Program-made: the position numbers and the translations under genes
Notes under the pieces: generated by a model
What the model saw: the letters and a program-made list of their open reading frames with translations, nothing else
What the model was told of the DNA's origin: nothing
The model's database searches: none
NCBI GenBank assembly: GCA_946412015.1
Contig: CAMKGA010000002.1
Coordinates: 6,930 to 70,929, forward strand
DNA: 64,000 nt
Direction of reading: 5' to 3'
Origin: an uncultured Bacillales bacterium
GTDB lineage: Bacteria; Bacillota_I; Bacilli_A; RF39; UBA660
Part shown: piece by piece, positions 2,186 through 55,973 of the stretch
Layout: each line of letters starts with the position of its first letter
Numbering within the stretch: the first letter of the stretch is position 1

Positions 2186-3964
2186 TTATATTTTTATTTC
2201 TATATTATACTTTTCTATCCATAAATCAAATTGATATAAATAAGCAATTAATTGTGGTTTTGTCATTAACTGTCCAAACCACGGAATTACATAATCAGTA
2301 TTATCATCAAGTAATATATTAATTTCATCTATATTAAATATTTTACTTAAATTGTTATTTTTTAATCTTGATTTTAATAAAATTTTTACTTCATTTAAAA
2401 AGTAAGGATGATGAGTTTTAGGATATGGATTTTTCTTCCTATATAATATTTCATCTGGAATAACACCTTTAAATGCCTCTCTTAGTAAATATTTTTCTTG
2501 ATTATTTTTATACTTATAACTAAATGGTAAATTCCATAAATATTCAATCAACTTAGTATCTGCAAACGGCACTCTTGCTTCTATAGTAGCTCCCATAGTC
2601 ATTCTATCTTTTCTATCAAGTAGGGTAGTCATAAAATGTGTCATATTTATATAAAATAGTCTTTTATACTTATTCTTTCTATCTTTTCTATTTAGTTCTT
2701 TAATCATTCTTTTATATTCTTTTTTTATAGTTTTTTCTAAATTAATATTTATATTCTTATTAATTAACTTTTGTCTATATTCTATATTATTAATCCAAGG
2801 AAATATGTTATTTAACTCATCTTTATAAAACCATGGATATCCACCAAATATTTCATCTGCAACCTCACCACTTAATATAACTTTATAATCCTTAGATATT
2901 TCTTTAGAAAACCAGTATAGTGATGAGTCTATATCTGTCATTCCTGGATAGTCTCGCAAAAATAATGTATCATCAAGTAATTTTACAACATCTTTTTGAT
3001 TAATAGTTTTATATTTATGATTAGTATTAAATGTTTTACTCATTAACTCTATATATTTTTTATCTTCTGATACAGTAAAATTATTTTTTTTAAAATATTT
3101 ACTATTATCTTCATAGTCAATTGAATATGTTGTAAGATTATCCTTTGAATTAATCGCACATATCGCACTAATTATACTAGAATCCAGCCCTCCTGATAGT
3201 AAAGTTGCAATTCTTGTATCTGATACCATTTGTCTTTTTATAGAACTTGTAACTAAATTATATACTTTATCTTTAGCCTCATCAAACGAGTCAGTACACT
3301 TTTTACTTTTTAACTTCCAATATCTTTTTATTTTTATACGTCCCTTTTTATATATTAAATAATGTGCTGGCCTTAATTCATATATATCTTTAAAAACGCC
3401 ACTACCACTTTTTCTAGAAGGACCTAGAGCTAAGAGATTAGCTAATTCTTTTTTTGTTAATATAGGTCTTACTAATTTACTTTTTAAAATAGGCCTAATC
3501 ATAGATGAAAATATAAATTTCTTTTTTATTTTAGAATAAAATAATGGTTTTACTCCAAATCTATCACGTGCTAAAAATAATTCTTTTGTTTTTTTATTAT
3601 ATATTGCGAATGCAAAAATGCCTTCTAGTTTATTAAGAATTTTCTTTTTATATTCTGCATATCCTTTTAGTATTACTTCTGTATCACTAGTTGTTGAAAA
3701 TGTATAACCTTTATTTAAAAGATCATTTTTTATCTCTTCAGAATTATATACCTCACCATTGTAAACAATTATATAATTTTTAAAAAACATAGGTTGGCTA
3801 CCATTTTTTAAGTCTCTAATTGCTAGTCTTTTATGACCTAATGATACATTTTTATTAAAATAATATCCTGTTGAATCTTTTCCTCTGTTTTTCATTAAAT
3901 CAAGCATTTCTTTAAATAGATTATGATCTATATTACTGTTTAATACACCTAATATCGCACACAT
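2186..3964 (-). CDS. asnB: Asparagine synthase (glutamine-hydrolysing)
   Basis: N-terminal MCAILG (Ntn Cys2 of class-II amidotransferases), RGKDSTG, YNGEVYN. The synthetase domain has SGGLDSS (PP-loop) and LSGEVADEIFGGY. Confidence 0.93.
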   Translation of the reverse strand: MCAILGVLNSNIDHNLFKEMLDLMKNRGKDSTGYYFNKNVSLGHKRLAIRDLKNGSQPMFFKNYIIVYNGEVYNSEEIKNDLLNKGYTFSTTSDTEVILKGYAEYKKKILNKLEGIFAFAIYNKKTKELFLARDRFGVKPLFYSKIKKKFIFSSMIRPILKSKLVRPILTKKELANLLALGPSRKSGSGVFKDIYELRPAHYLIYKKGRIKIKRYWKLKSKKCTDSFDEAKDKVYNLVTSSIKRQMVSDTRIATLLSGGLDSSIISAICAINSKDNLTTYSIDYEDNSKYFKKNNFTVSEDKKYIELMSKTFNTNHKYKTINQKDVVKLLDDTLFLRDYPGMTDIDSSLYWFSKEISKDYKVILSGEVADEIFGGYPWFYKDELNNIFPWINNIEYRQKLINKNININLEKTIKKEYKRMIKELNRKDRKNKYKRLFYINMTHFMTTLLDRKDRMTMGATIEARVPFADTKLIEYLWNLPFSYKYKNNQEKYLLREAFKGVIPDEILYRKKNPYPKTHHPYFLNEVKILLKSRLKNNNLSKIFNIDEINILLDDNTDYVIPWFGQLMTKPQLIAYLYQFDLWIEKYNIEIKI

Positions 3965-47564: not shown

Positions 47565-48617
47565 ATGAGATATACAAAAGGTTCAATAAAAATTAATAAT
47601 GATTTAAATAGGATTGATAAAGAATTAAATAATAATAAAAATGTAGGTAAAAATATTACTATACTTGAAAATTATTTAAATCAGCCATATTTTAAAACAA
47701 GAGTAAAAAAGATATTGTTTAAAGGATATATGCAGATAAGAAAAATAGATAAGGCATATAATTTAATTAAAGAATTATACGAAAGTACAAAAGAAGAGAC
47801 TGCTTTAATGGATTTAGTTAAACTACTTTTAGATAGTGGGTTAGTAGATAAGGCAAAAGAGTATGTAAATGATGCATATTTTTCAAATGAAAAAATATAT
47901 TTACTTGGATTAATATATGAATATGAAGGTAATTATGAAGATGCAATTGCAACTTTAAAAAAATTAAATCATACTTTAATGGAAGAAGATATGCATATAG
48001 AACTTGGATGTATATATGAATATATGCATAATTTAAAGAGCGCAAAAGAAGAGTTTAAGTGTTTACTTAAAACTGATAAGAGATATCAAGCAACCCTTAG
48101 ACTTATAAAAATTGCTTTTGGAGAGAGTGATCCTAAATTACCTGAATTAATTCAAAGTTTTGATATTGATAATTGTAAACATCAAGGAGATATAGTTCAG
48201 TATAAAAGGTGTGTCAAATACTATAAATATTTACGTGGTGAGTTAATTGATGAAGATATTGAAACTTATTTTGATAGACAGTTATATAGTTATAGTAAAG
48301 ATAGAGCATTACAACATGTAAGTAAGCGTCATTTATTAAAGGGGACTCTTTATAAGTTAAATGATGATATTAACTTAGCTGAAGTGTATGATTATTGTAC
48401 TTCTAATTTAAAACATTTAGTAAGAAAAGATGATACAGATATGTATTTAGTAAAAATGCCTTACGATATAGGATATTTAATGGATTATAAAACTGATTTA
48501 CTTGAAGTTGTAGTAATACCTAATACTAACAAAATACTTACAATGTATCCTGTAGCTAGAATTGGAAGATATGAAAAAATGCTTGAAAAAGAAGGTAAGG
48601 TAAAGGATGAACAATAA
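47565..48617 (+). CDS. TPR-like repeat protein with an unknown C-terminal domain (350 aa)
   Basis: First gene after the T-box terminator (GGAGGAAAT-ATG). It has 34-residue-type helical repeats, for example YLLGLIYEYEGNYEDAIATLKKL and ELGCIYEYMHNLKSAKEEFKCLL. Confidence 0.65.
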   Translation: MRYTKGSIKINNDLNRIDKELNNNKNVGKNITILENYLNQPYFKTRVKKILFKGYMQIRKIDKAYNLIKELYESTKEETALMDLVKLLLDSGLVDKAKEYVNDAYFSNEKIYLLGLIYEYEGNYEDAIATLKKLNHTLMEEDMHIELGCIYEYMHNLKSAKEEFKCLLKTDKRYQATLRLIKIAFGESDPKLPELIQSFDIDNCKHQGDIVQYKRCVKYYKYLRGELIDEDIETYFDRQLYSYSKDRALQHVSKRHLLKGTLYKLNDDINLAEVYDYCTSNLKHLVRKDDTDMYLVKMPYDIGYLMDYKTDLLEVVVIPNTNKILTMYPVARIGRYEKMLEKEGKVKDEQ

Positions 48618-49269
48618 TATAATAGATTTTTATATGTTTACAAATATATTAAAAAATAAACTTAGAACGGGATGGGTTGAAATAGAAATTAGTAAAGAAA
48701 GAAAAGAGAGTATTGCAGAACATATATATGGAACTTTAATGCTTGCAATAGCAATAGATAGTGAATATAAACTAGATATTGATATGTTAAAAGTATTAAA
48801 AATGCTATCTTTACACGAATTAGAAGAAATACTTATGCCAGATTATACAATAAGGTCTAATATTACAATAGATGAAAAAAGAAAAAATGGTAAAAAGAGC
48901 GTTGAAAAAGTTGTAGATGGTCTAATAAAAAAAGAAGATATTATAAATCTATTAGATGAGTTTAATGAACGTGAAAGTAAAGAAGCTAAGTTTTGTTATT
49001 TGATTGATAAAATAGAATGTGACTTTCAAGCTAAATTATATGATTTAGAAGGGGTTATGGATTTTGAAAAATCAAAAGAAGATTTAGAATATTATGGTGA
49101 TAGAAAAGATGAGATTAATAATAATTCTAAATGTGCAAGTGATTTTTGGATAGAATATGATAGAGTTAGATATCAAGATAATAAAATATTTAAAAGTTTA
49201 ATAGATGATATTAAAAATATAGATACTAATAAATATAAAAAAATAATGGAGGAAGAAAATATATGCTAG
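48607..49269 (+). CDS. HD-superfamily hydrolase (YfbR-like 5'-nucleotidase family, HD_3 type) with HE instead of HD
   Basis: LRTGW, ESIAEHIYGTLMLA, LSLHELEEILMPD, YLIDKIECD. Collinear with YfbR metal ligands except for the D to E change. Confidence 0.7.
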   Translation: MNNNIIDFYMFTNILKNKLRTGWVEIEISKERKESIAEHIYGTLMLAIAIDSEYKLDIDMLKVLKMLSLHELEEILMPDYTIRSNITIDEKRKNGKKSVEKVVDGLIKKEDIINLLDEFNERESKEAKFCYLIDKIECDFQAKLYDLEGVMDFEKSKEDLEYYGDRKDEINNNSKCASDFWIEYDRVRYQDNKIFKSLIDDIKNIDTNKYKKIMEEENIC

Positions 49270-51794
49270 ATAAGAAATATAATCATAATAAAGTAGAAGA
49301 GAATAAATATGAAAAATGGCTTAGTAAAGATTATTTTAAGTGTGAAGATGGAATTAGTAACAAAAAATCATTTTGTATAGTATTACCTCCACCAAATGTA
49401 ACAGGGGTACTACATTTAGGACATGCTTGGGATGTAACATTACAAGATATTATTATTCGTTATAAGAAAATGGAGGGTTATGATACATTATGGCTTCCTG
49501 GTATGGACCATGCTGCAATTGCAACTGAAGCTAAAGTTGTAAAAAGATTAAAAGAAAATAATATTAATAAATATGAATATGGTAGAGAAAAATTTTTAAA
49601 TGCTTGTTGGGATTGGACTAAAGAACACGGCGATATTATACGCAAACAGTGGGCTAAAATGGGTATTGCTCTAGATTATTCTAAAGAAAGATTTACTTTA
49701 GATGAAGGATTATCTAAAGCTGTAAAAAAAGTTTTTGTTGATTATTACAATGAAGGGTTAATATATCGTGGTGAGAAAATAATTAACTGGGATCCAGTAG
49801 CTAAAACTGCATTATCAAATGAAGAAGTTATATATAAAGAAGAAAAAAGTGCTTTTTATCATTTAAAATATATAATAGATGGAACAGATGATTATTTAGA
49901 TGTTGCAACCACTCGTCCTGAAACATTATTTGGAGATACTGCAGTTGCAGTAAATCCTAATGATGATAGATATAAACATCTAATTGGGAAAAATGTTATA
50001 CTACCTCTTGTTGGAAGATTAATACCAATTATAGCAGATGAACATGCAGACCCTACTAAAGGAACAGGTGTTGTTAAAATTACACCATCACATGATCCTA
50101 ATGACTTTGAGGTAGGCCTAAGACATAACCTTGAGAGAATTAATGTTATGAATGATGATGCTACTATGAATGAAAATGCTCTAAATTATTGTGGTATGAC
50201 TCGTGAAGAGTGTAGAGAAGAAATGTTAAAAGAACTAGAAAAATTAGGATTACTTTTAGAAGTTGAACCATTAGTACATGAAGTTGGACACAGTGAAAGA
50301 ACTGGTGTAATGGTAGAGCCAATGATAAAAAAACAATGGTTTGTTAAAATGCGCCCATTAGCAGATAAAGTATTAGAAACACAAAAGAAAAAGGATGAAA
50401 AAGTTAACTTTGTACCTACAAGATATGAAAAAGTTATGAATCACTGGATGGAAATTACATATGATTGGTGTATTTCACGTCAATTATGGTGGGGACATAG
50501 AATACCTGCTTGGTATAAAGGTGATGATGTTTATGTCGGAATAAATCCTCCTAAAGAAGATGGATGGGTACAAGATGAAGATGTACTTGATACTTGGTTT
50601 TCATCTGCACTATGGCCATTTGCAGCATTAGGTTGGCCTGATAATACAGAAATGTTAAAAAAATATTATCCAAATCAATGTTTAGTAACAGGATATGATA
50701 TTATACCTTTTTGGGTTAATAGAATGACATTTCAAGGAGAAAAATTACTTGGTAAAAGACCATTTAAAGATTGTTTAATTCATGGATTAATAAGAGATAA
50801 GCAAGGTAGAAAATTTTCTAAAAGCCTAGGTAATGGAATTGATCCATTTGACATGGTAGAAAAGTATGGAGCAGATGCTTTAAGATATTATCTTGCAACC
50901 GATGTCGCACCAGGTACTGATATGAAATTTGATGAAGAAAAAATTAAATCAGCATGGAACTTTATAAATAAAATATGGAATGCCGCAAGATTTGTTATAT
51001 CAAATATTGAAGATTTAAAAGAAATTAATTTAGATAATTTAAAACCAGAAGATAAATGGATACTTACTAAATATGAAAAATGTATTCATGAAGTAAAAAA
51101 ATTTATGGATAAATATCAATTTAATAATGCTGCTGCATCCATCTATGAGTTTACTTGGAATATGTTCTGTGATAATTATATAGAAATGGCTAAATATTCA
51201 ATAGATACTATAAGTACTAAATCAACATTATGTTTTGTACTTACAGGAATATTAAAAATGTTACAACCATTCATGCCATATGTAACAGATGAGATTTATT
51301 CAAAACTTCCTATAAAAGAGAAAGAAGATATAATGATTTCATCATATCCAAAATACAGTAAAAAATATATATTTACTGATGCCGAGATTGCAGTAGATGA
51401 CCAAATTGAATTTATAAAAAGCTTTAGAAACATAAAAGCAGAAAATAATATTACTAAAGAAGCAAAGATAATGTTTGATACAGATGATGATAATGATTTA
51501 ATTGTAAATATGCTTAAAATAAAAGATAATGTTGTAAAAAAACCACTTGGTATGAAAGCATATAAAGTATTCTCAAGAAGAGTAAAAGCACAAATTTTCT
51601 TTGAGAAAGTTGAAACAGAAGCAGATAAAAAATTAAAGGAAGCACAAATAAAACTATTATCTTCATCAATAGAAAGAAGAGAAAAATTATTATCTAATGA
51701 AAATTATGTTAATAAGGCACCTAAAAAAATAGTTGATTTAGATAGAGCCAAGTTAGAAGAAGAAAAGAAAAAACTAGAATTATTATTGAAATAA
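49263..51794 (+). CDS. valS: Valine--tRNA ligase
   Basis: PPPNVTGVLHLGHA (HIGH), the CP1 editing region TTRPETLFGDTAVAVNP, WCISRQLWWGHRIP, KFSKSLGN (KMSKS) and a C-terminal coiled coil. Confidence 0.97.
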   Translation: MLDKKYNHNKVEENKYEKWLSKDYFKCEDGISNKKSFCIVLPPPNVTGVLHLGHAWDVTLQDIIIRYKKMEGYDTLWLPGMDHAAIATEAKVVKRLKENNINKYEYGREKFLNACWDWTKEHGDIIRKQWAKMGIALDYSKERFTLDEGLSKAVKKVFVDYYNEGLIYRGEKIINWDPVAKTALSNEEVIYKEEKSAFYHLKYIIDGTDDYLDVATTRPETLFGDTAVAVNPNDDRYKHLIGKNVILPLVGRLIPIIADEHADPTKGTGVVKITPSHDPNDFEVGLRHNLERINVMNDDATMNENALNYCGMTREECREEMLKELEKLGLLLEVEPLVHEVGHSERTGVMVEPMIKKQWFVKMRPLADKVLETQKKKDEKVNFVPTRYEKVMNHWMEITYDWCISRQLWWGHRIPAWYKGDDVYVGINPPKEDGWVQDEDVLDTWFSSALWPFAALGWPDNTEMLKKYYPNQCLVTGYDIIPFWVNRMTFQGEKLLGKRPFKDCLIHGLIRDKQGRKFSKSLGNGIDPFDMVEKYGADALRYYLATDVAPGTDMKFDEEKIKSAWNFINKIWNAARFVISNIEDLKEINLDNLKPEDKWILTKYEKCIHEVKKFMDKYQFNNAAASIYEFTWNMFCDNYIEMAKYSIDTISTKSTLCFVLTGILKMLQPFMPYVTDEIYSKLPIKEKEDIMISSYPKYSKKYIFTDAEIAVDDQIEFIKSFRNIKAENNITKEAKIMFDTDDDNDLIVNMLKIKDNVVKKPLGMKAYKVFSRRVKAQIFFEKVETEADKKLKEAQIKLLSSSIERREKLLSNENYVNKAPKKIVDLDRAKLEEEKKKLELLLK

Positions 51795-51818
51795 ATAGCA
51801 CCTATCTGCTATTTTTTT
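51793..51818 (+). terminator. valS terminator
   Basis: Stem AAATAGCA/TGCTATTT with loop CCTATC, running into T7. Confidence 0.7.
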
Positions 51819-51821
51819 AAT

Positions 51822-51850
51822 TTGCTAAAAAACTAAAAATATGGTAATAT
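51822..51850 (+). promoter_or_regulatory. Promoter of the 349-aa/630-aa cassette
   Basis: TTGCTA (51822-51827), 17-nt spacer, TAATAT (51845-51850). Confidence 0.6.
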
Positions 51851-51875
51851 ACAAACCTGTTAAAGGGGGATTATT

Positions 51876-52925
51876 ATGGAAGATAAACTATATAATTTAT
51901 TTAAGTGTGAAAAAATAGTTAATGAAGAATTTATATTAGAATTAATAGATTATTTAAATAATAATAATTACGATATTAGAGGTATAAATAATATAATAAA
52001 AGCTATATGTAATTACAATACTAAAATATATGAAAAATTAAGATTAGAAAATAAGGAATTTGAATCTGTATTAAATAAAAGAAAAGAAGTAAAAAACATA
52101 GAAAAATTAGAAAATAATGTAGTACATGAACATATTAAAGAAGATAAAGAAGACAATTCAATGAAAATGGATATATCATTTTATATAGAATTTATAAACA
52201 GTTTAGATGATTATGAAGATATAGATATGATATTACCAAAAAAACATACTGATAATTATCAAGATATAATAAATTTAATATTACTTCACTATTTTGAAGA
52301 ATACAAAATGACTGAAAAGTTATTAAAGGATATAAGTAAAGATGATATAGATTATAAAGAATATAATGATTATAAATGTAAATGTTTAAAAATAATAAAA
52401 TATATAAAAAATTATAATCAATATATAAATAGTTCTAATAATAATACAGATGATATAGAAAATAAAGTAGTTTTCTTAAAAACTAATAGAGATAATATAT
52501 GTGTAAAAAATGATATTATAAAGGATATACCACAACAGTATTATTCTGATATACTAGAACTTATTGAAAGTATTAAAAAAGGTACATTTAAAAATATTAA
52601 GTGTTTTAATAATAATAAAAACTTAGAAGGATTATATGAAGTTAAGTATCGTGATGTTAGATTAACATTCAAAAGACTATCTAAAGATGTTTATATATTA
52701 ATTCAAGCATTTGTAAAAAAATGTTATACAAGTAGTCAGTATCATAATATGATGGGAAGTAGATATGTAGTTTTTAAATCACAAAAAAATCTATTATTAA
52801 AATATATAAATGATACTAATTATCTTCTTGAAAATGCAAAAATATTAGATTATATAGAAGAAATATTAGGTAATAAAAAGGGATGTGATAATTATGAAAA
52901 GGTTAAAAGAAGCGATAGAAAGTAG
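51876..52925 (+). CDS. Hypothetical 349-aa protein containing a RelE/ParE-like toxin-fold segment (about residues 196-282)
   Basis: RBS AAAGGGGGATTATT-ATG. The segment VVFLKTNRD..IPQQYYSDILELIESIKKG...LEGLYEVKYRDVRLTFKRLSKDVYILIQAFVKK matches the RelE/ParE/Gp49-type pattern. The rest is unrecognised. Confidence 0.6.
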   Translation: MEDKLYNLFKCEKIVNEEFILELIDYLNNNNYDIRGINNIIKAICNYNTKIYEKLRLENKEFESVLNKRKEVKNIEKLENNVVHEHIKEDKEDNSMKMDISFYIEFINSLDDYEDIDMILPKKHTDNYQDIINLILLHYFEEYKMTEKLLKDISKDDIDYKEYNDYKCKCLKIIKYIKNYNQYINSSNNNTDDIENKVVFLKTNRDNICVKNDIIKDIPQQYYSDILELIESIKKGTFKNIKCFNNNKNLEGLYEVKYRDVRLTFKRLSKDVYILIQAFVKKCYTSSQYHNMMGSRYVVFKSQKNLLLKYINDTNYLLENAKILDYIEEILGNKKGCDNYEKVKRSDRK

Positions 52926-54777
52926 ATGTAGAGTTTTAAAGGTAGAACCTATAGATTCTCATTATGAAGAATTTTTAAGAATTTATAAAGAGTGTTTATA
53001 TGGAAAATACGAAAAAGCAGAACCAGCATTCTATTCTATTTTTGTATTATTATTAATAATAACAAAAATAGGGCCATCATATTCAAAAAAACTAGAAGAG
53101 CTTATTAAAAGTTGTAGTTTAATATTCTCTAATATTATTCTTTCGGAACGAAAATATCGTGAATATTATGATGCGCTTAAAATATTATATAATCATGACC
53201 ATGATAAAAAAGTAGCAAAGCTAAACTTATTAGCTGCCCAAAATACAGTTAGAAAAATAAATAAAGAATTTGATAAAATATATGATAATATTCCTAAAAC
53301 AAAAATGAGACCTTCACTTGCACTAAAAGAATTATTCTATTTATGTCCGGATAAAGATATATTTATGAGTGTTCTTCTATTTGATAAACTTGCATATATT
53401 GATAAAAATTTTGATGGAATACTAGATGATATTAAAAGTGAAAGAGGCATACAAGTAAAAAACAAAAAAGCAAAAAAGTTGAAGCGTGAATCTATAAATA
53501 CAATTGGTAGTAAAGAGATAAAAATTATAGATAGATATTGTAAGATGATAGATGATTATTACACAAATTTATTTAATGAAACAAGAAATAACAGTAAAAT
53601 TAATAATAAAATAAAAAATAATTATGAAAAGTTATACATGAAATTAGTATATAATAGAGGTTATATTAGTAGTATAAATGAAGATATAAAACTAATAGAA
53701 GATGAAAATGTATTACACGAATATTTAAGATATGTTATTAGTAATAATAGTAAATATGAACAGGAAGTATCTAAAAAGAATATTGAGCTGAAAAGTAAAC
53801 AAGTATCCAACATTGAGATTATATTTCATAAATATGGTTATAACTTATCAAAATTAACTGAAGATGGAATAATAGAAATTAGTGAAATTGATAATTTAGA
53901 AGAAAAGTTAAATTTATTAAGAAACTCTAAATTAAATATTGTAAGTGAAGATAATAATTTGTTTATATTATTATTAAAATGTGATATAGAACAACTTTAC
54001 TATTTTACTTATTTATATAAAGAAAGCATTATAGATATAAATTTTTTAATTAACAATAGCTTAGTTTTAACAAATAAAGATATTTATAATAATTTTAAAT
54101 TAAATATAAATTTACTTAATAATTTTATAAGTAAAATTGCCAAATATAATAAAAATATATTATTAATAAATAATAATACATTAACAAAAAGATTAAAACT
54201 TATGCAATATTATAATATAGATATAAATAAGTTTAATAAATTTGAATTTTTAGAAAATGACATTATATTTAATTTACTTGATAATTTTATAGAACTTGGT
54301 TATTATAATCAAATAAGTAATAATCCTGATTACCTTGTAAGTAGTAATTATAATGCAATAAAAAGATTACAAATAGCTAGTTTAATTAACATGAATGTTA
54401 TAAATAATGATAATTCATTTATAGGTTCAATTATAACTGGAGATAATTTTTATATTCCAGATAATAAATTAGATGAGTTTTTAGTTGACTATACAGAAGA
54501 TTATGTTGATAACAACATATCTAGCATAGAAATATCAAATAGTGATTATAGTTACTTATCTAAATTATCTAATTATGAAATTGATAATTTAACATATAAT
54601 ATAAATGGTAAATTAATAAGTAAAAATAGATTATTAAGAAACATAAATGCATTAAAAGGGGAAGAAAGCACATATTTATTACATAAAGCAATTTTATCAG
54701 GTTCAATTAATTTAGATAATGATGATATTAGTGTAATAAATAATATTATAGGGATTAAGATAAAAGTTAAGAAATAA
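52894..54777 (+). CDS. Hypothetical 627-aa protein with about 30-residue helical repeats; its start overlaps the upstream gene
   Basis: ATG 52894 follows AAGGGA (GTG 52885 is also possible) and lies inside the 3' end of the previous ORF. The ORF is uninterrupted for 1.9 kb and is followed by a terminator (54769..54796). Confidence 0.7.
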   Translation: MKRLKEAIESRCRVLKVEPIDSHYEEFLRIYKECLYGKYEKAEPAFYSIFVLLLIITKIGPSYSKKLEELIKSCSLIFSNIILSERKYREYYDALKILYNHDHDKKVAKLNLLAAQNTVRKINKEFDKIYDNIPKTKMRPSLALKELFYLCPDKDIFMSVLLFDKLAYIDKNFDGILDDIKSERGIQVKNKKAKKLKRESINTIGSKEIKIIDRYCKMIDDYYTNLFNETRNNSKINNKIKNNYEKLYMKLVYNRGYISSINEDIKLIEDENVLHEYLRYVISNNSKYEQEVSKKNIELKSKQVSNIEIIFHKYGYNLSKLTEDGIIEISEIDNLEEKLNLLRNSKLNIVSEDNNLFILLLKCDIEQLYYFTYLYKESIIDINFLINNSLVLTNKDIYNNFKLNINLLNNFISKIAKYNKNILLINNNTLTKRLKLMQYYNIDINKFNKFEFLENDIIFNLLDNFIELGYYNQISNNPDYLVSSNYNAIKRLQIASLINMNVINNDNSFIGSIITGDNFYIPDNKLDEFLVDYTEDYVDNNISSIEISNSDYSYLSKLSNYEIDNLTYNINGKLISKNRLLRNINALKGEESTYLLHKAILSGSINLDNDDISVINNIIGIKIKVKK

Positions 54778-54819
54778 GAGATTTCTTAGCTTTTTTAATA
54801 TAAAAATTATAAAAATTTG

Positions 54820-54892: not shown

Positions 54893-55165
54893 ATGACAAA
54901 AACAGATTTAATTAATTATGTTGCTGAAGAAGCAGGATTATCAAAAGCAGATGCAACTCGTGCACTAGATGCAGTTATGAGTGGAATTACTAAAGGATTA
55001 AAGGAAGAAAAGAAAGTTGCTTTAACTGGTTTCTGTACTTTTACTGCAAAAGATAAACCAGCATCAACTGGACGTAATCCAAGAACTGGAGAACCAGTTA
55101 CAATTGCAGCTAGAACTGCAGTTACTGTTAAAATTGGTTCTAAATTAAAAGATGCTTTAAACTAA
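54893..55165 (+). CDS. hup: DNA-binding protein HU
   Basis: MTKTDLINYVAEEAGLSKADATRALDAV, GFCTFTAKDKPASTGRNPRTGEPVTIAA. This is the canonical HU/IHF signature. A terminator hairpin plus T9 follows. Confidence 0.96.
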   Translation: MTKTDLINYVAEEAGLSKADATRALDAVMSGITKGLKEEKKVALTGFCTFTAKDKPASTGRNPRTGEPVTIAARTAVTVKIGSKLKDALN

Positions 55166-55304: not shown

Positions 55305-55973
55305 TTATGGCTTTTTGTTTATAATCTTTTCTTTATTTTTATTGTCTGTAAACATTATATTACCATTTTCAATATTAAAATCCATATTGAAAAAATCACT
55401 AATAATATTATTATCACTTATATTTATACTAGATATAAATGTAACATGAATATAATCAAGTAATTTAATATAGTATTCCTTAGTAGATTTTTGATCTCTA
55501 TTTATATATTTTAACTCTAATAATTCTTTTAATTCTTTTAGTTTATTTATTTTTTTATCAACATCACTATTATTAATACTATCAATCTCTTTATTTTTAG
55601 CATCAATTTCTTTATCAAATGAAACTTTTTCTTCTTGATAAAAATATATTTCATTAACAGCGGATTTATCATCACTAAGTAATCTATCAATTAACTCTAC
55701 TAAATTTGGTGGAGTAAGTAAATCAAAACGATGTAGATAAACTGATCTAGTCCCATCATAGTATTCATTAAAACCAATAGGTTCACTAGTATGATTTTTA
55801 ACTAACTTATTTTCAAAATAATTGTCATTAAAGCTATATTCTCTTTCAATTTCAACATGTTCTATTTTACTACAATTATTAATTATTTCTTTTTTTATCT
55901 CATTTATTCTATTTATATCATATGTAATTTCATATTTATTAATAACTTTATCATCTAATTCATAATATATCAT
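55305..55973 (-). CDS. Hypothetical protein (222 aa)
   Basis: RBS TAGGAGGGTTTT-ATG on the minus strand. No motif recognised. Confidence 0.55.
   Translation of the reverse strand: MIYYELDDKVINKYEITYDINRINEIKKEIINNCSKIEHVEIEREYSFNDNYFENKLVKNHTSEPIGFNEYYDGTRSVYLHRFDLLTPPNLVELIDRLLSDDKSAVNEIYFYQEEKVSFDKEIDAKNKEIDSINNSDVDKKINKLKELKELLELKYINRDQKSTKEYYIKLLDYIHVTFISSINISDNNIISDFFNMDFNIENGNIMFTDNKNKEKIINKKP

Follow-up and report, generated by a model that had tools for sequence, protein, structure and literature searches.

A conserved chromosomal gene pair of gut and rumen Bacillota that joins a predicted HigB-type domain to a large helical partner

RelE/HigB toxins are textbook examples of mobile, small modules in which a toxin is paired with an antitoxin, and their cellular role is debated. 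The known gp49/HigB members are single-domain proteins of about 100-120 amino acids (aa), are accompanied by a small antitoxin of the XRE helix-turn-helix (HTH) type, and are patchy and mobile in their distribution. In the RelE-family protein Cami1, the N-terminal domain is a CARF sensor that is activated by cyclic oligoadenylate, and the gene lies in type III CRISPR loci, while CapRel-type and toxin-antitoxin-chaperone systems are mobile defence systems with a known sensor logic. Toxins of the gp49 family are ribosome-dependent mRNases, with the toxin gene placed first (PMC11980606). A survey of multidomain toxins of the BECR fold (Gerdes, 2025) describes gp49-HTH fusions, RelE-YiaG, ptuXYZ and ToxM/ToxR, and omitted multidomain proteins without an identifiable antitoxin (PMC11980606). 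Here, we describe two overlapping open reading frames, ORF1 and ORF2, that lie between valS and hup in a stretch of 64,000 nucleotides (nt) from an uncultured Bacillales bacterium (assembly GCA_946412015.1, contig CAMKGA010000002.1, positions 6,930 to 70,929 of the forward strand), hereafter the window.

Residues ~196-285 of ORF1 are supported, by predicted fold and by partial profile evidence, as a RelE/HigB fold of the gp49/HigB branch within the RelE/ParE superfamily. The best-supported view of the pair as a whole is that of a vertically inherited, stable chromosomal operon of Erysipelotrichaceae-like Bacillota of the gut and rumen, and not that of a mobile insertion.

A predicted HigB-type domain and its large partner

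The coding features of the pair are as follows.

51876-52925, plus strand: ORF1, 349 aa
51876-52445, plus strand: N-terminal helical domain of ORF1 (aa 1-190), a putative partner-linked module
52461-52730, plus strand: HigB/Gp49-type domain of the RelE superfamily in ORF1 (aa 196-285), predicted as beta-alpha-alpha-beta-beta-beta-beta
52731-52925, plus strand: C-terminal extension of ORF1 with two predicted helices (286-310 and 314-332) and a disordered tail, overlapping the start of ORF2
52894-54777, plus strand: ORF2, 627 aa from the ATG at 52894, a predicted all-alpha partner with a fold without match

The AlphaFold2 (AF2) model of ORF1, built on an alignment of 8 sequences, has a mean predicted local distance difference test score (pLDDT) of 73, with values mostly of 80-93 in the C-terminal half, which includes the HigB-type domain. 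Residues 197-310 are predicted to follow the order beta-alpha-alpha-beta-beta-beta-beta-alpha, with strands at 197-200, 241-243, 254-258, 261-269 and 272-280 and helices at 209-217, 220-235 and 286-310, so that the predicted structure has the compact beta-alpha-alpha-beta-beta-beta(-alpha) arrangement of RelE/HigB-type proteins. When the model was compared with the PDB using Foldseek, the best match was Streptococcus pneumoniae HigB (6af4; E 5e-3, probability 1.0, template modelling score 0.65 on the target), followed by RelE of Methanocaldococcus jannaschii (3bpq), Cami1 (8phb, probability 0.66), Vibrio cholerae HigB2 (5jaa) and ParE2 (7r5a). ORF1 of the window has no match in Pfam at E <= 1, and its family has no consistent match in NCBIfam. 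Scanned singly, 52 of 149 family members match the Gp49 profile (PF05973) at E <= 0.1, the best at E 6.9e-7; the members sampled reach 13.6-16.3 bits, short of the gathering score of 23.9 bits, with matches that span positions 1-82 of the 90 in the profile and fall where they are expected in the protein. An initial annotation of this DNA, made from the letters alone, had proposed a RelE/ParE/HigB(Gp49)-type fold within a longer protein, and the AF2 model, the Foldseek matches and the Gp49 matches across the family bear it out at the level of prediction; its coordinates and sequence were correct, and the peptide that it quoted is exactly residues 196-282 of ORF1.

The pattern of conservation provides a third line of evidence. 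Across 149 diverse representatives of the ORF1 family, which are only 20-30% identical overall, the near-invariant positions are N196, K239, E255, V256, K/R257, R262, F265, R267, Y273, F279, K281, K282 and Y289. Five of these, namely E255, K/R257, R262, F279 and K281, are shared by 138-148 of the 149 members. The active site of S. pneumoniae HigB has been defined by mutagenesis as E66, R68, R73, F90 and K92, with R68, R73 and F90 the most important (PMC7984235). The spacing of the five residues, +2/+5/+17/+2, is identical in the two proteins, which suggests that E255, K257, R262, F279 and K281 of ORF1 would be the equivalents of the active-site residues of HigB. That such residues stay near-invariant at so low an overall identity argues that the active-site-type pattern is under selection.

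The regions flanking this domain differ in their degree of conservation. The N-terminal domain is predicted to be all-helical, from a first helix at 2-12 to a last at 158-185, with low confidence at 73-97, and is weakly conserved except for Y103, L120 and P121; in the C-terminal extension, Y289 is kept in 136/149 members. Four human-gut contigs (L040, L042, L043 and L046) encode a short ORF1 paralogue that consists of the N-terminal domain alone (positions 1-163 of the 323 in the family hidden Markov model, HMM), and its stop codon overlaps the start of a full ORF2 paralogue of 628 aa. Since the N-terminal domain and an ORF2 partner thus exist together without the nuclease domain, the N-terminal domain is likely to be the module linked to the partner, with the HigB-type domain as a detachable effector. 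The HigB-less unit is an extra one, lying in tandem upstream of a full pair (L040:1923-4384, and likewise in the other three contigs). Tandem duplications of the ORF1-ORF2 unit are also found on gut and rumen contigs (L008:2-3100, L039:662-6353, L048:305-4124 and L054:2875-8033). In L008, the downstream copy of ORF2 is apparently split over two reading frames (1974-2789 and 2786-3100).

ORF2 is predicted to be helical over residues 1-533, with low confidence at 535-627, in an AF2 model built on 7 sequences (pLDDT 75). Its best-conserved region, aa 440-582, contains LDNFIELGY, R491, F519 and ISKNRxLRN. Searches of ORF1 and ORF2 against Pfam, NCBIfam, PADLOC and PHROGs gave nothing significant, and a Pfam scan of 11 diverse ORF2-family members gave no match. 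The ORF2-family profile found only ferritin or G-alpha noise among PDB sequences, and Foldseek searches of PDB and BFVD returned only meaningless matches to long helices (talin, tape-measure proteins; E > 0.1). An mTERF-like or TPR-like repeat was considered for ORF2 and dropped, as neither the Foldseek search of the PDB nor the Pfam scan of diverse members supported it. A word-indexed search with the ORF2 alignment added no members, its candidate list being saturated by AT-rich low-complexity words. The library, profile and structure searches are therefore empty for ORF2, in keeping with the initial annotation, which had recognised no enzyme motif in it. That annotation had also noted that no canonical antitoxin-sized ORF or HTH protein lies next to the pair, and the ORFs of the window agree: neither a small ORF nor one for an HTH protein adjoins it. 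Across loci the partner measures 594-671 aa, and Pfam, PDB-profile and Foldseek searches found no HTH or ribbon-helix-helix in it.

An alignment of the ORF1 and ORF2 families with hhalign gave only a 33-column motif (E 0.072, not significant) and no shared domain. This short helical motif, L..I..N......EN..LK, lies at 51981-52082 of the window (ORF1 aa 36-69) and at 53713-53811 (ORF2 aa 274-306), and its Asn is invariant in both families.

Pairing, genomic position and expression signals

With clustering at 50% identity, an exhaustive profile search gathered 781 clusters of the ORF1 family, of which 283 have E <= 1e-30; the 150 best matches listed are nearly all 305-350 aa long and align over most of their length. 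A metagenome scan (human gut, rodent caecum and rumen) added 50 loci, and every ORF in the 66 loci was scored with HMMs. Wherever an ORF1 homologue had at least 1.5 kb of DNA downstream, an ORF2 homologue followed it (50/50), and the gap between the two genes is -46 to +2 nt in 49 of these 50 loci. At distant loci the partners are true homologues of ORF2 (BLASTP E 4e-9 and 2e-20); unannotated genes upstream of the pair in L011 are unrelated to ORF2. The initial annotation had called the locus a self-contained, overlapping two-gene unit and had proposed co-occurrence of the homologues as a check; adjacency is conserved throughout, and overlap almost always. As in type II toxin-antitoxin modules, the pair is thus bicistronic, with adjacent or overlapping genes for the toxin-type protein and its partner.

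In the window, the overlap is 32 nt when ORF2 is read from the ATG at 52894, which places it in the +1 frame relative to ORF1. The other candidate start, GTG 52885, would give 630 aa. The ATG is favoured because the N-termini of the ORF2 homologues, which all open with M-x-K-L-K, align there; of the two starts that had been offered at the outset, the overlap is real and the GTG is not favoured. With the start codon of one gene inside the other, ORF1 and ORF2 are probably translationally coupled.

Close relatives, in which valS is 90% identical, share the order TPR protein, HD protein, valS, ORF1, ORF2, and have dnaG-sigA after the pair where the window has hup. In distant lineages, the usual position is between addB-addA(-dinG) and rplU-ysxB-rpmA-obg; the genes for L21-L27(-Obg) lie downstream of the pair in at least 20 loci, and AddA lies upstream in many. 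Other positions are before uvrC or after cell-wall genes. This conserved placement spans lineages with only about 25% protein identity. A genome-collection scan, made with patterns specific to the close subfamily, found only two genomes, both rumen metagenome-assembled genomes (MAGs) labelled 'uncultured Erysipelotrichaceae', which supply the sole taxonomic labels. As in many lineages, the pair begins only 14-42 nt after dinG or addA in L009 (5974-8001), L029 (3022-3064) and L030 (4449-4491). In many lineages the pair may thus share a transcript with the AddAB recombination genes, the linkage having been lost in the lineage of the window.

In the window, whose G+C content is about 25%, valS runs to 51794 and hup begins at 54893, and the interval is occupied by the two ORFs on the same strand, with these signals.

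51785-51821, plus strand: valS terminator, a hairpin and T-run with its core stem at 51793-51814
51822-51850, plus strand: putative sigma-70-type promoter, with -35 TTGCTA at 51822-51827, a 17-nt spacer and -10 TAATAT at 51845-51850
51862-51869, plus strand: Shine-Dalgarno sequence of ORF1, AAAGGGGG, read from the sequence, 6 nt upstream of the ATG at 51876
52878-52883, plus strand: Shine-Dalgarno-like AAGGGA of ORF2, within the ORF1 coding sequence, 10 nt upstream of the ATG at 52894
54762-54794, plus strand: terminator of the cassette, a hairpin and T-run at the end of ORF2, from RNA folding

Both terminators that had been proposed to bracket the unit hold up against shuffled sequences. The region 51785-51825 folds at -9.4 kcal/mol (z -4.3; 0 of 200 shuffles as stable) and the region 54760-54805 at -12.3 kcal/mol (z -4.1). 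A hairpin and T-run of a different sequence stands at the equivalent place downstream of valS in L001 and L003, and L001 has a comparable 7-bp hairpin followed by T8 after ORF2. A scan for consensus terminators detected neither bracketing hairpin because their stems are A+T-rich, with fewer than three G-C pairs. The proposed TTGCTA-N17-TAATAT promoter, which also has an extended -10 (TG at 51842-51843), fared less evenly. Its score of 8/12 is statistically indistinguishable from chance in such AT-rich DNA, where promoter-like sites occur at chance frequency (49 found, 49.1 expected); the syntenic relatives L001 and L003 have TTGAAT ... TGcTATTAT, and no gap is needed to align this with the -35 and TGnTAnTAT elements of the window. 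From the hairpins, the promoter elements aligned in these relatives and the separate terminator after ORF2, it follows that ORF1-ORF2 is a self-contained transcription unit with its own conserved promoter and terminators. An Rfam search around the cassette found no RNA element.

Further observations concern the surroundings of the pair. Directly upstream of valS (47565-49269), the window has overlapping genes for a TPR-like protein of 350 aa and an HD-domain protein (HD_3) of 220 aa; the trio with valS is kept in L001-L003, where the two proteins are 72% and 67% identical. Between hup and the gene for the CCA-adding enzyme lies an Asn/Lys-rich ORF of 222 aa (55305-55973, minus strand) without a match in Pfam or NCBIfam. 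On a contig of a rumen MAG, no ORF of at least 80 aa follows the ORF2 homologue for 1.8 kb (L006:10244-12075).

A candidate mechanism and its alternatives

Taken together, these results lead to a reading that we hold with even confidence, namely that ORF1-ORF2 is a chromosomally fixed module in which a HigB-type nuclease sits on an adaptor domain and is controlled by the coupled, adaptor-bound ORF2. ORF1 would be modular, with an N-terminal helical domain, a gp49/HigB-type endoribonuclease domain and a C-terminal extension of two helices. ORF2, with its start codon inside the end of ORF1, would be made in fixed proportion by translational coupling, bind to the N-terminal domain of ORF1, and hold or regulate the HigB-type domain. 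When released or activated, the latter would cleave mRNA in the ribosomal A site, like other gp49/HigB toxins. The control would thus resemble that of a toxin-antitoxin system, with the toxin-first order of gp49/higBA, in a module that is fixed on the chromosome rather than mobile.

Several points weigh against this reading. ORF1 itself has no significant Pfam match, the ORF1-family profile finds no PDB sequence, and the fold call combines an 8-sequence model (pLDDT 73) with sub-threshold Gp49 matches in one third of the family. The active-site mapping follows from spacing and strand position and not from a residue-level structural superposition. ORF2 is without an HTH and resembles no known antitoxin, and we only infer that it binds or neutralises ORF1. 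Moreover, the pair evolves fast, at 55% and 52% identity compared with 90% for valS and 72% and 67% for the two upstream neighbours; such divergence could reflect an arms race or weak constraint. Finally, wide vertical conservation beside housekeeping genes is unusual for a toxin-antitoxin logic, and a constitutive cellular role fits equally.

The main alternative takes up this last point. The pair could be a constitutive housekeeping factor, a domesticated HigB-fold nuclease for RNA processing or translation surveillance with ORF2 as its scaffold or targeting subunit instead of its inhibitor; by analogy with Rae1 or SmrB, it might cleave mRNA on stalled ribosomes. That at least 20 loci have the pair in one fixed place, between addA and rplU-rpmA-obg, and that it stands elsewhere beside valS, dnaG-sigA or uvrC, speaks for such a factor, as do the size and uniform architecture of the family, its absence from mobile elements and the conservation of catalytic-type residues. 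We regard it as somewhat unlikely all the same, for a divergence that so far outpaces that of the neighbouring genes would be unusual in core translation factors, and the tandem duplications and the nuclease-less paralogue suggest lineage-specific tinkering. The initial annotation had itself set its proposal against a conserved core operon with a known housekeeping role; the pair is indeed conserved and core-like, and the searches identified no housekeeping role as such.

A mobile cassette is improbable. The initial annotation had seen in the pair a likely insertion between two housekeeping genes, valS and hup, and a candidate non-canonical toxin-antitoxin or defence-type unit, and the toxin-type domain, the toxin-first order of gp49/higBA, the pair's own promoter and terminator, its fast-evolving proteins and its tandem paralogues would all suit a mobile type II toxin-antitoxin or anti-phage cassette; the proximity of addAB in most lineages could even suggest a guard role. 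The insertion, however, found no support in the comparison: relatives keep the pair in synteny after valS, and in most other lineages it occupies the fixed addA/rplU-rpmA-obg slot, across lineages that share about 25% protein identity, so that syntenic positions and housekeeping flanks stand in place of the patchy, mobile distribution of type II toxin-antitoxin modules. In place of their small DNA-binding antitoxin, the sole partner is the large protein described above. No relatives of ORF1-ORF2 were found in 50,697 phage records, 72,556 plasmids and 2.9 million viral contigs, the last scanned with a 6-sequence alignment. The neighbours in the window are housekeeping genes (rnc, yebC, cca, valS and hup, with those for a rhomboid protease and an HD hydrolase), those across loci include addAB, rplU, obg, dnaG and uvrC, and no integrase, transposase or defence gene adjoins the pair. 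The idea of a defence setting likewise found no support, as neither protein matches a PADLOC defence model or a PHROGs family, the neighbourhood is no defence island, and the base composition is like that of nearby genes (G+C of 19.0% in the cassette compared with 19-22% in other weakly conserved genes). In one locus, an IS-type transposase (rve + HTH_Tnp_1; L015:184-1409) is found upstream of the pair at a distance of about 5.5 kb, with five unrelated genes between them.

It is more improbable still that the HigB-like domain is without catalytic activity and, in a structural complex formed with ORF2, does no more than bind protein or RNA. Helical regions flank the domain in the AF2 model and could occlude it, and one paralogue lacks it altogether; yet the residues that match the mutationally defined active site of HigB are near-invariant in the 149 representatives. 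Lastly, that the conserved domain of ORF1 is a LytTR-type DNA-binding domain and not a RelE fold is hardly credible: among PDB sequences, the domain profile matches the LytTR domain of AgrA best, over 82 residues, but at E = 0.1 this match is not significant, the predicted topology, with two helices between strands, is not that of an all-beta LytTR domain, and Foldseek and Pfam both point to HigB/Gp49.

Significance and comparison with known systems

We propose tentatively, as a possibility that is open to doubt, that in a whole lineage of gut Bacillota, of the rank of an order, a HigB-type ribosome-dependent mRNA endonuclease became fixed as a core component, held by a helical partner of 600 residues through an adaptor, with its ancestral site immediately downstream of addAB and upstream of rplU-rpmA-obg. 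Such a core endonuclease would take part in translation surveillance or mRNA decay, or else be a chromosomally encoded guard able to sense when AddAB or the ribosome is being interfered with. The family, with its hundreds of clusters, could serve as a natural test of whether nucleases of this kind can be domesticated for core control of RNA and translation. Moreover, two uncharacterised families common in human-gut and rumen bacteria are defined here, the N-terminal domain of ORF1 and ORF2, for which no counterpart was found in Pfam, NCBIfam or the PDB.

Among described systems, the nearest in architecture is Cami1 (8phb), a CRISPR-associated mRNA interferase of the RelE family, in which the RelE fold likewise lies C-terminal to a larger N-terminal regulatory domain; unlike Cami1, ORF1 and its neighbourhood have no CARF domain, CRISPR context or nucleotide-binding motif. 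CapRel and the HigB toxin-antitoxin-chaperone modules resemble the proposed arrangement in that control over the toxin domain lies with a protein element that is appended or additional, and not with a simple antitoxin, but they show no homology to the N-terminal domain of ORF1 or to ORF2, and the pair has no defence context. The multidomain toxins surveyed by Gerdes (2025) are similar to ORF1 in placing a RelE-superfamily domain within a larger protein or a non-standard operon, and none of the architectures described has an N-terminal helical domain of the ORF1 type or a partner of the ORF2 type (PMC11980606).

The closest relationship is with the gp49/HigB toxins themselves (PF05973, for example 6af4). 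The ORF1 domain is predicted to have the same fold and topology, including the C-terminal helix, and they are its best structural match; the spacing of the active-site-type residues and the toxin-first order are shared as well. Unlike these toxins, the domain of ORF1 is part of a protein of 315-350 aa, where it follows a helical domain of 190 aa, the partner has about 600 aa and no HTH, and the unit is syntenic and vertically inherited. Should the tentative proposal of a core endonuclease hold, ORF1-ORF2 would be the first domesticated, vertically inherited toxin of the RelE superfamily with a partner that is not an antitoxin.

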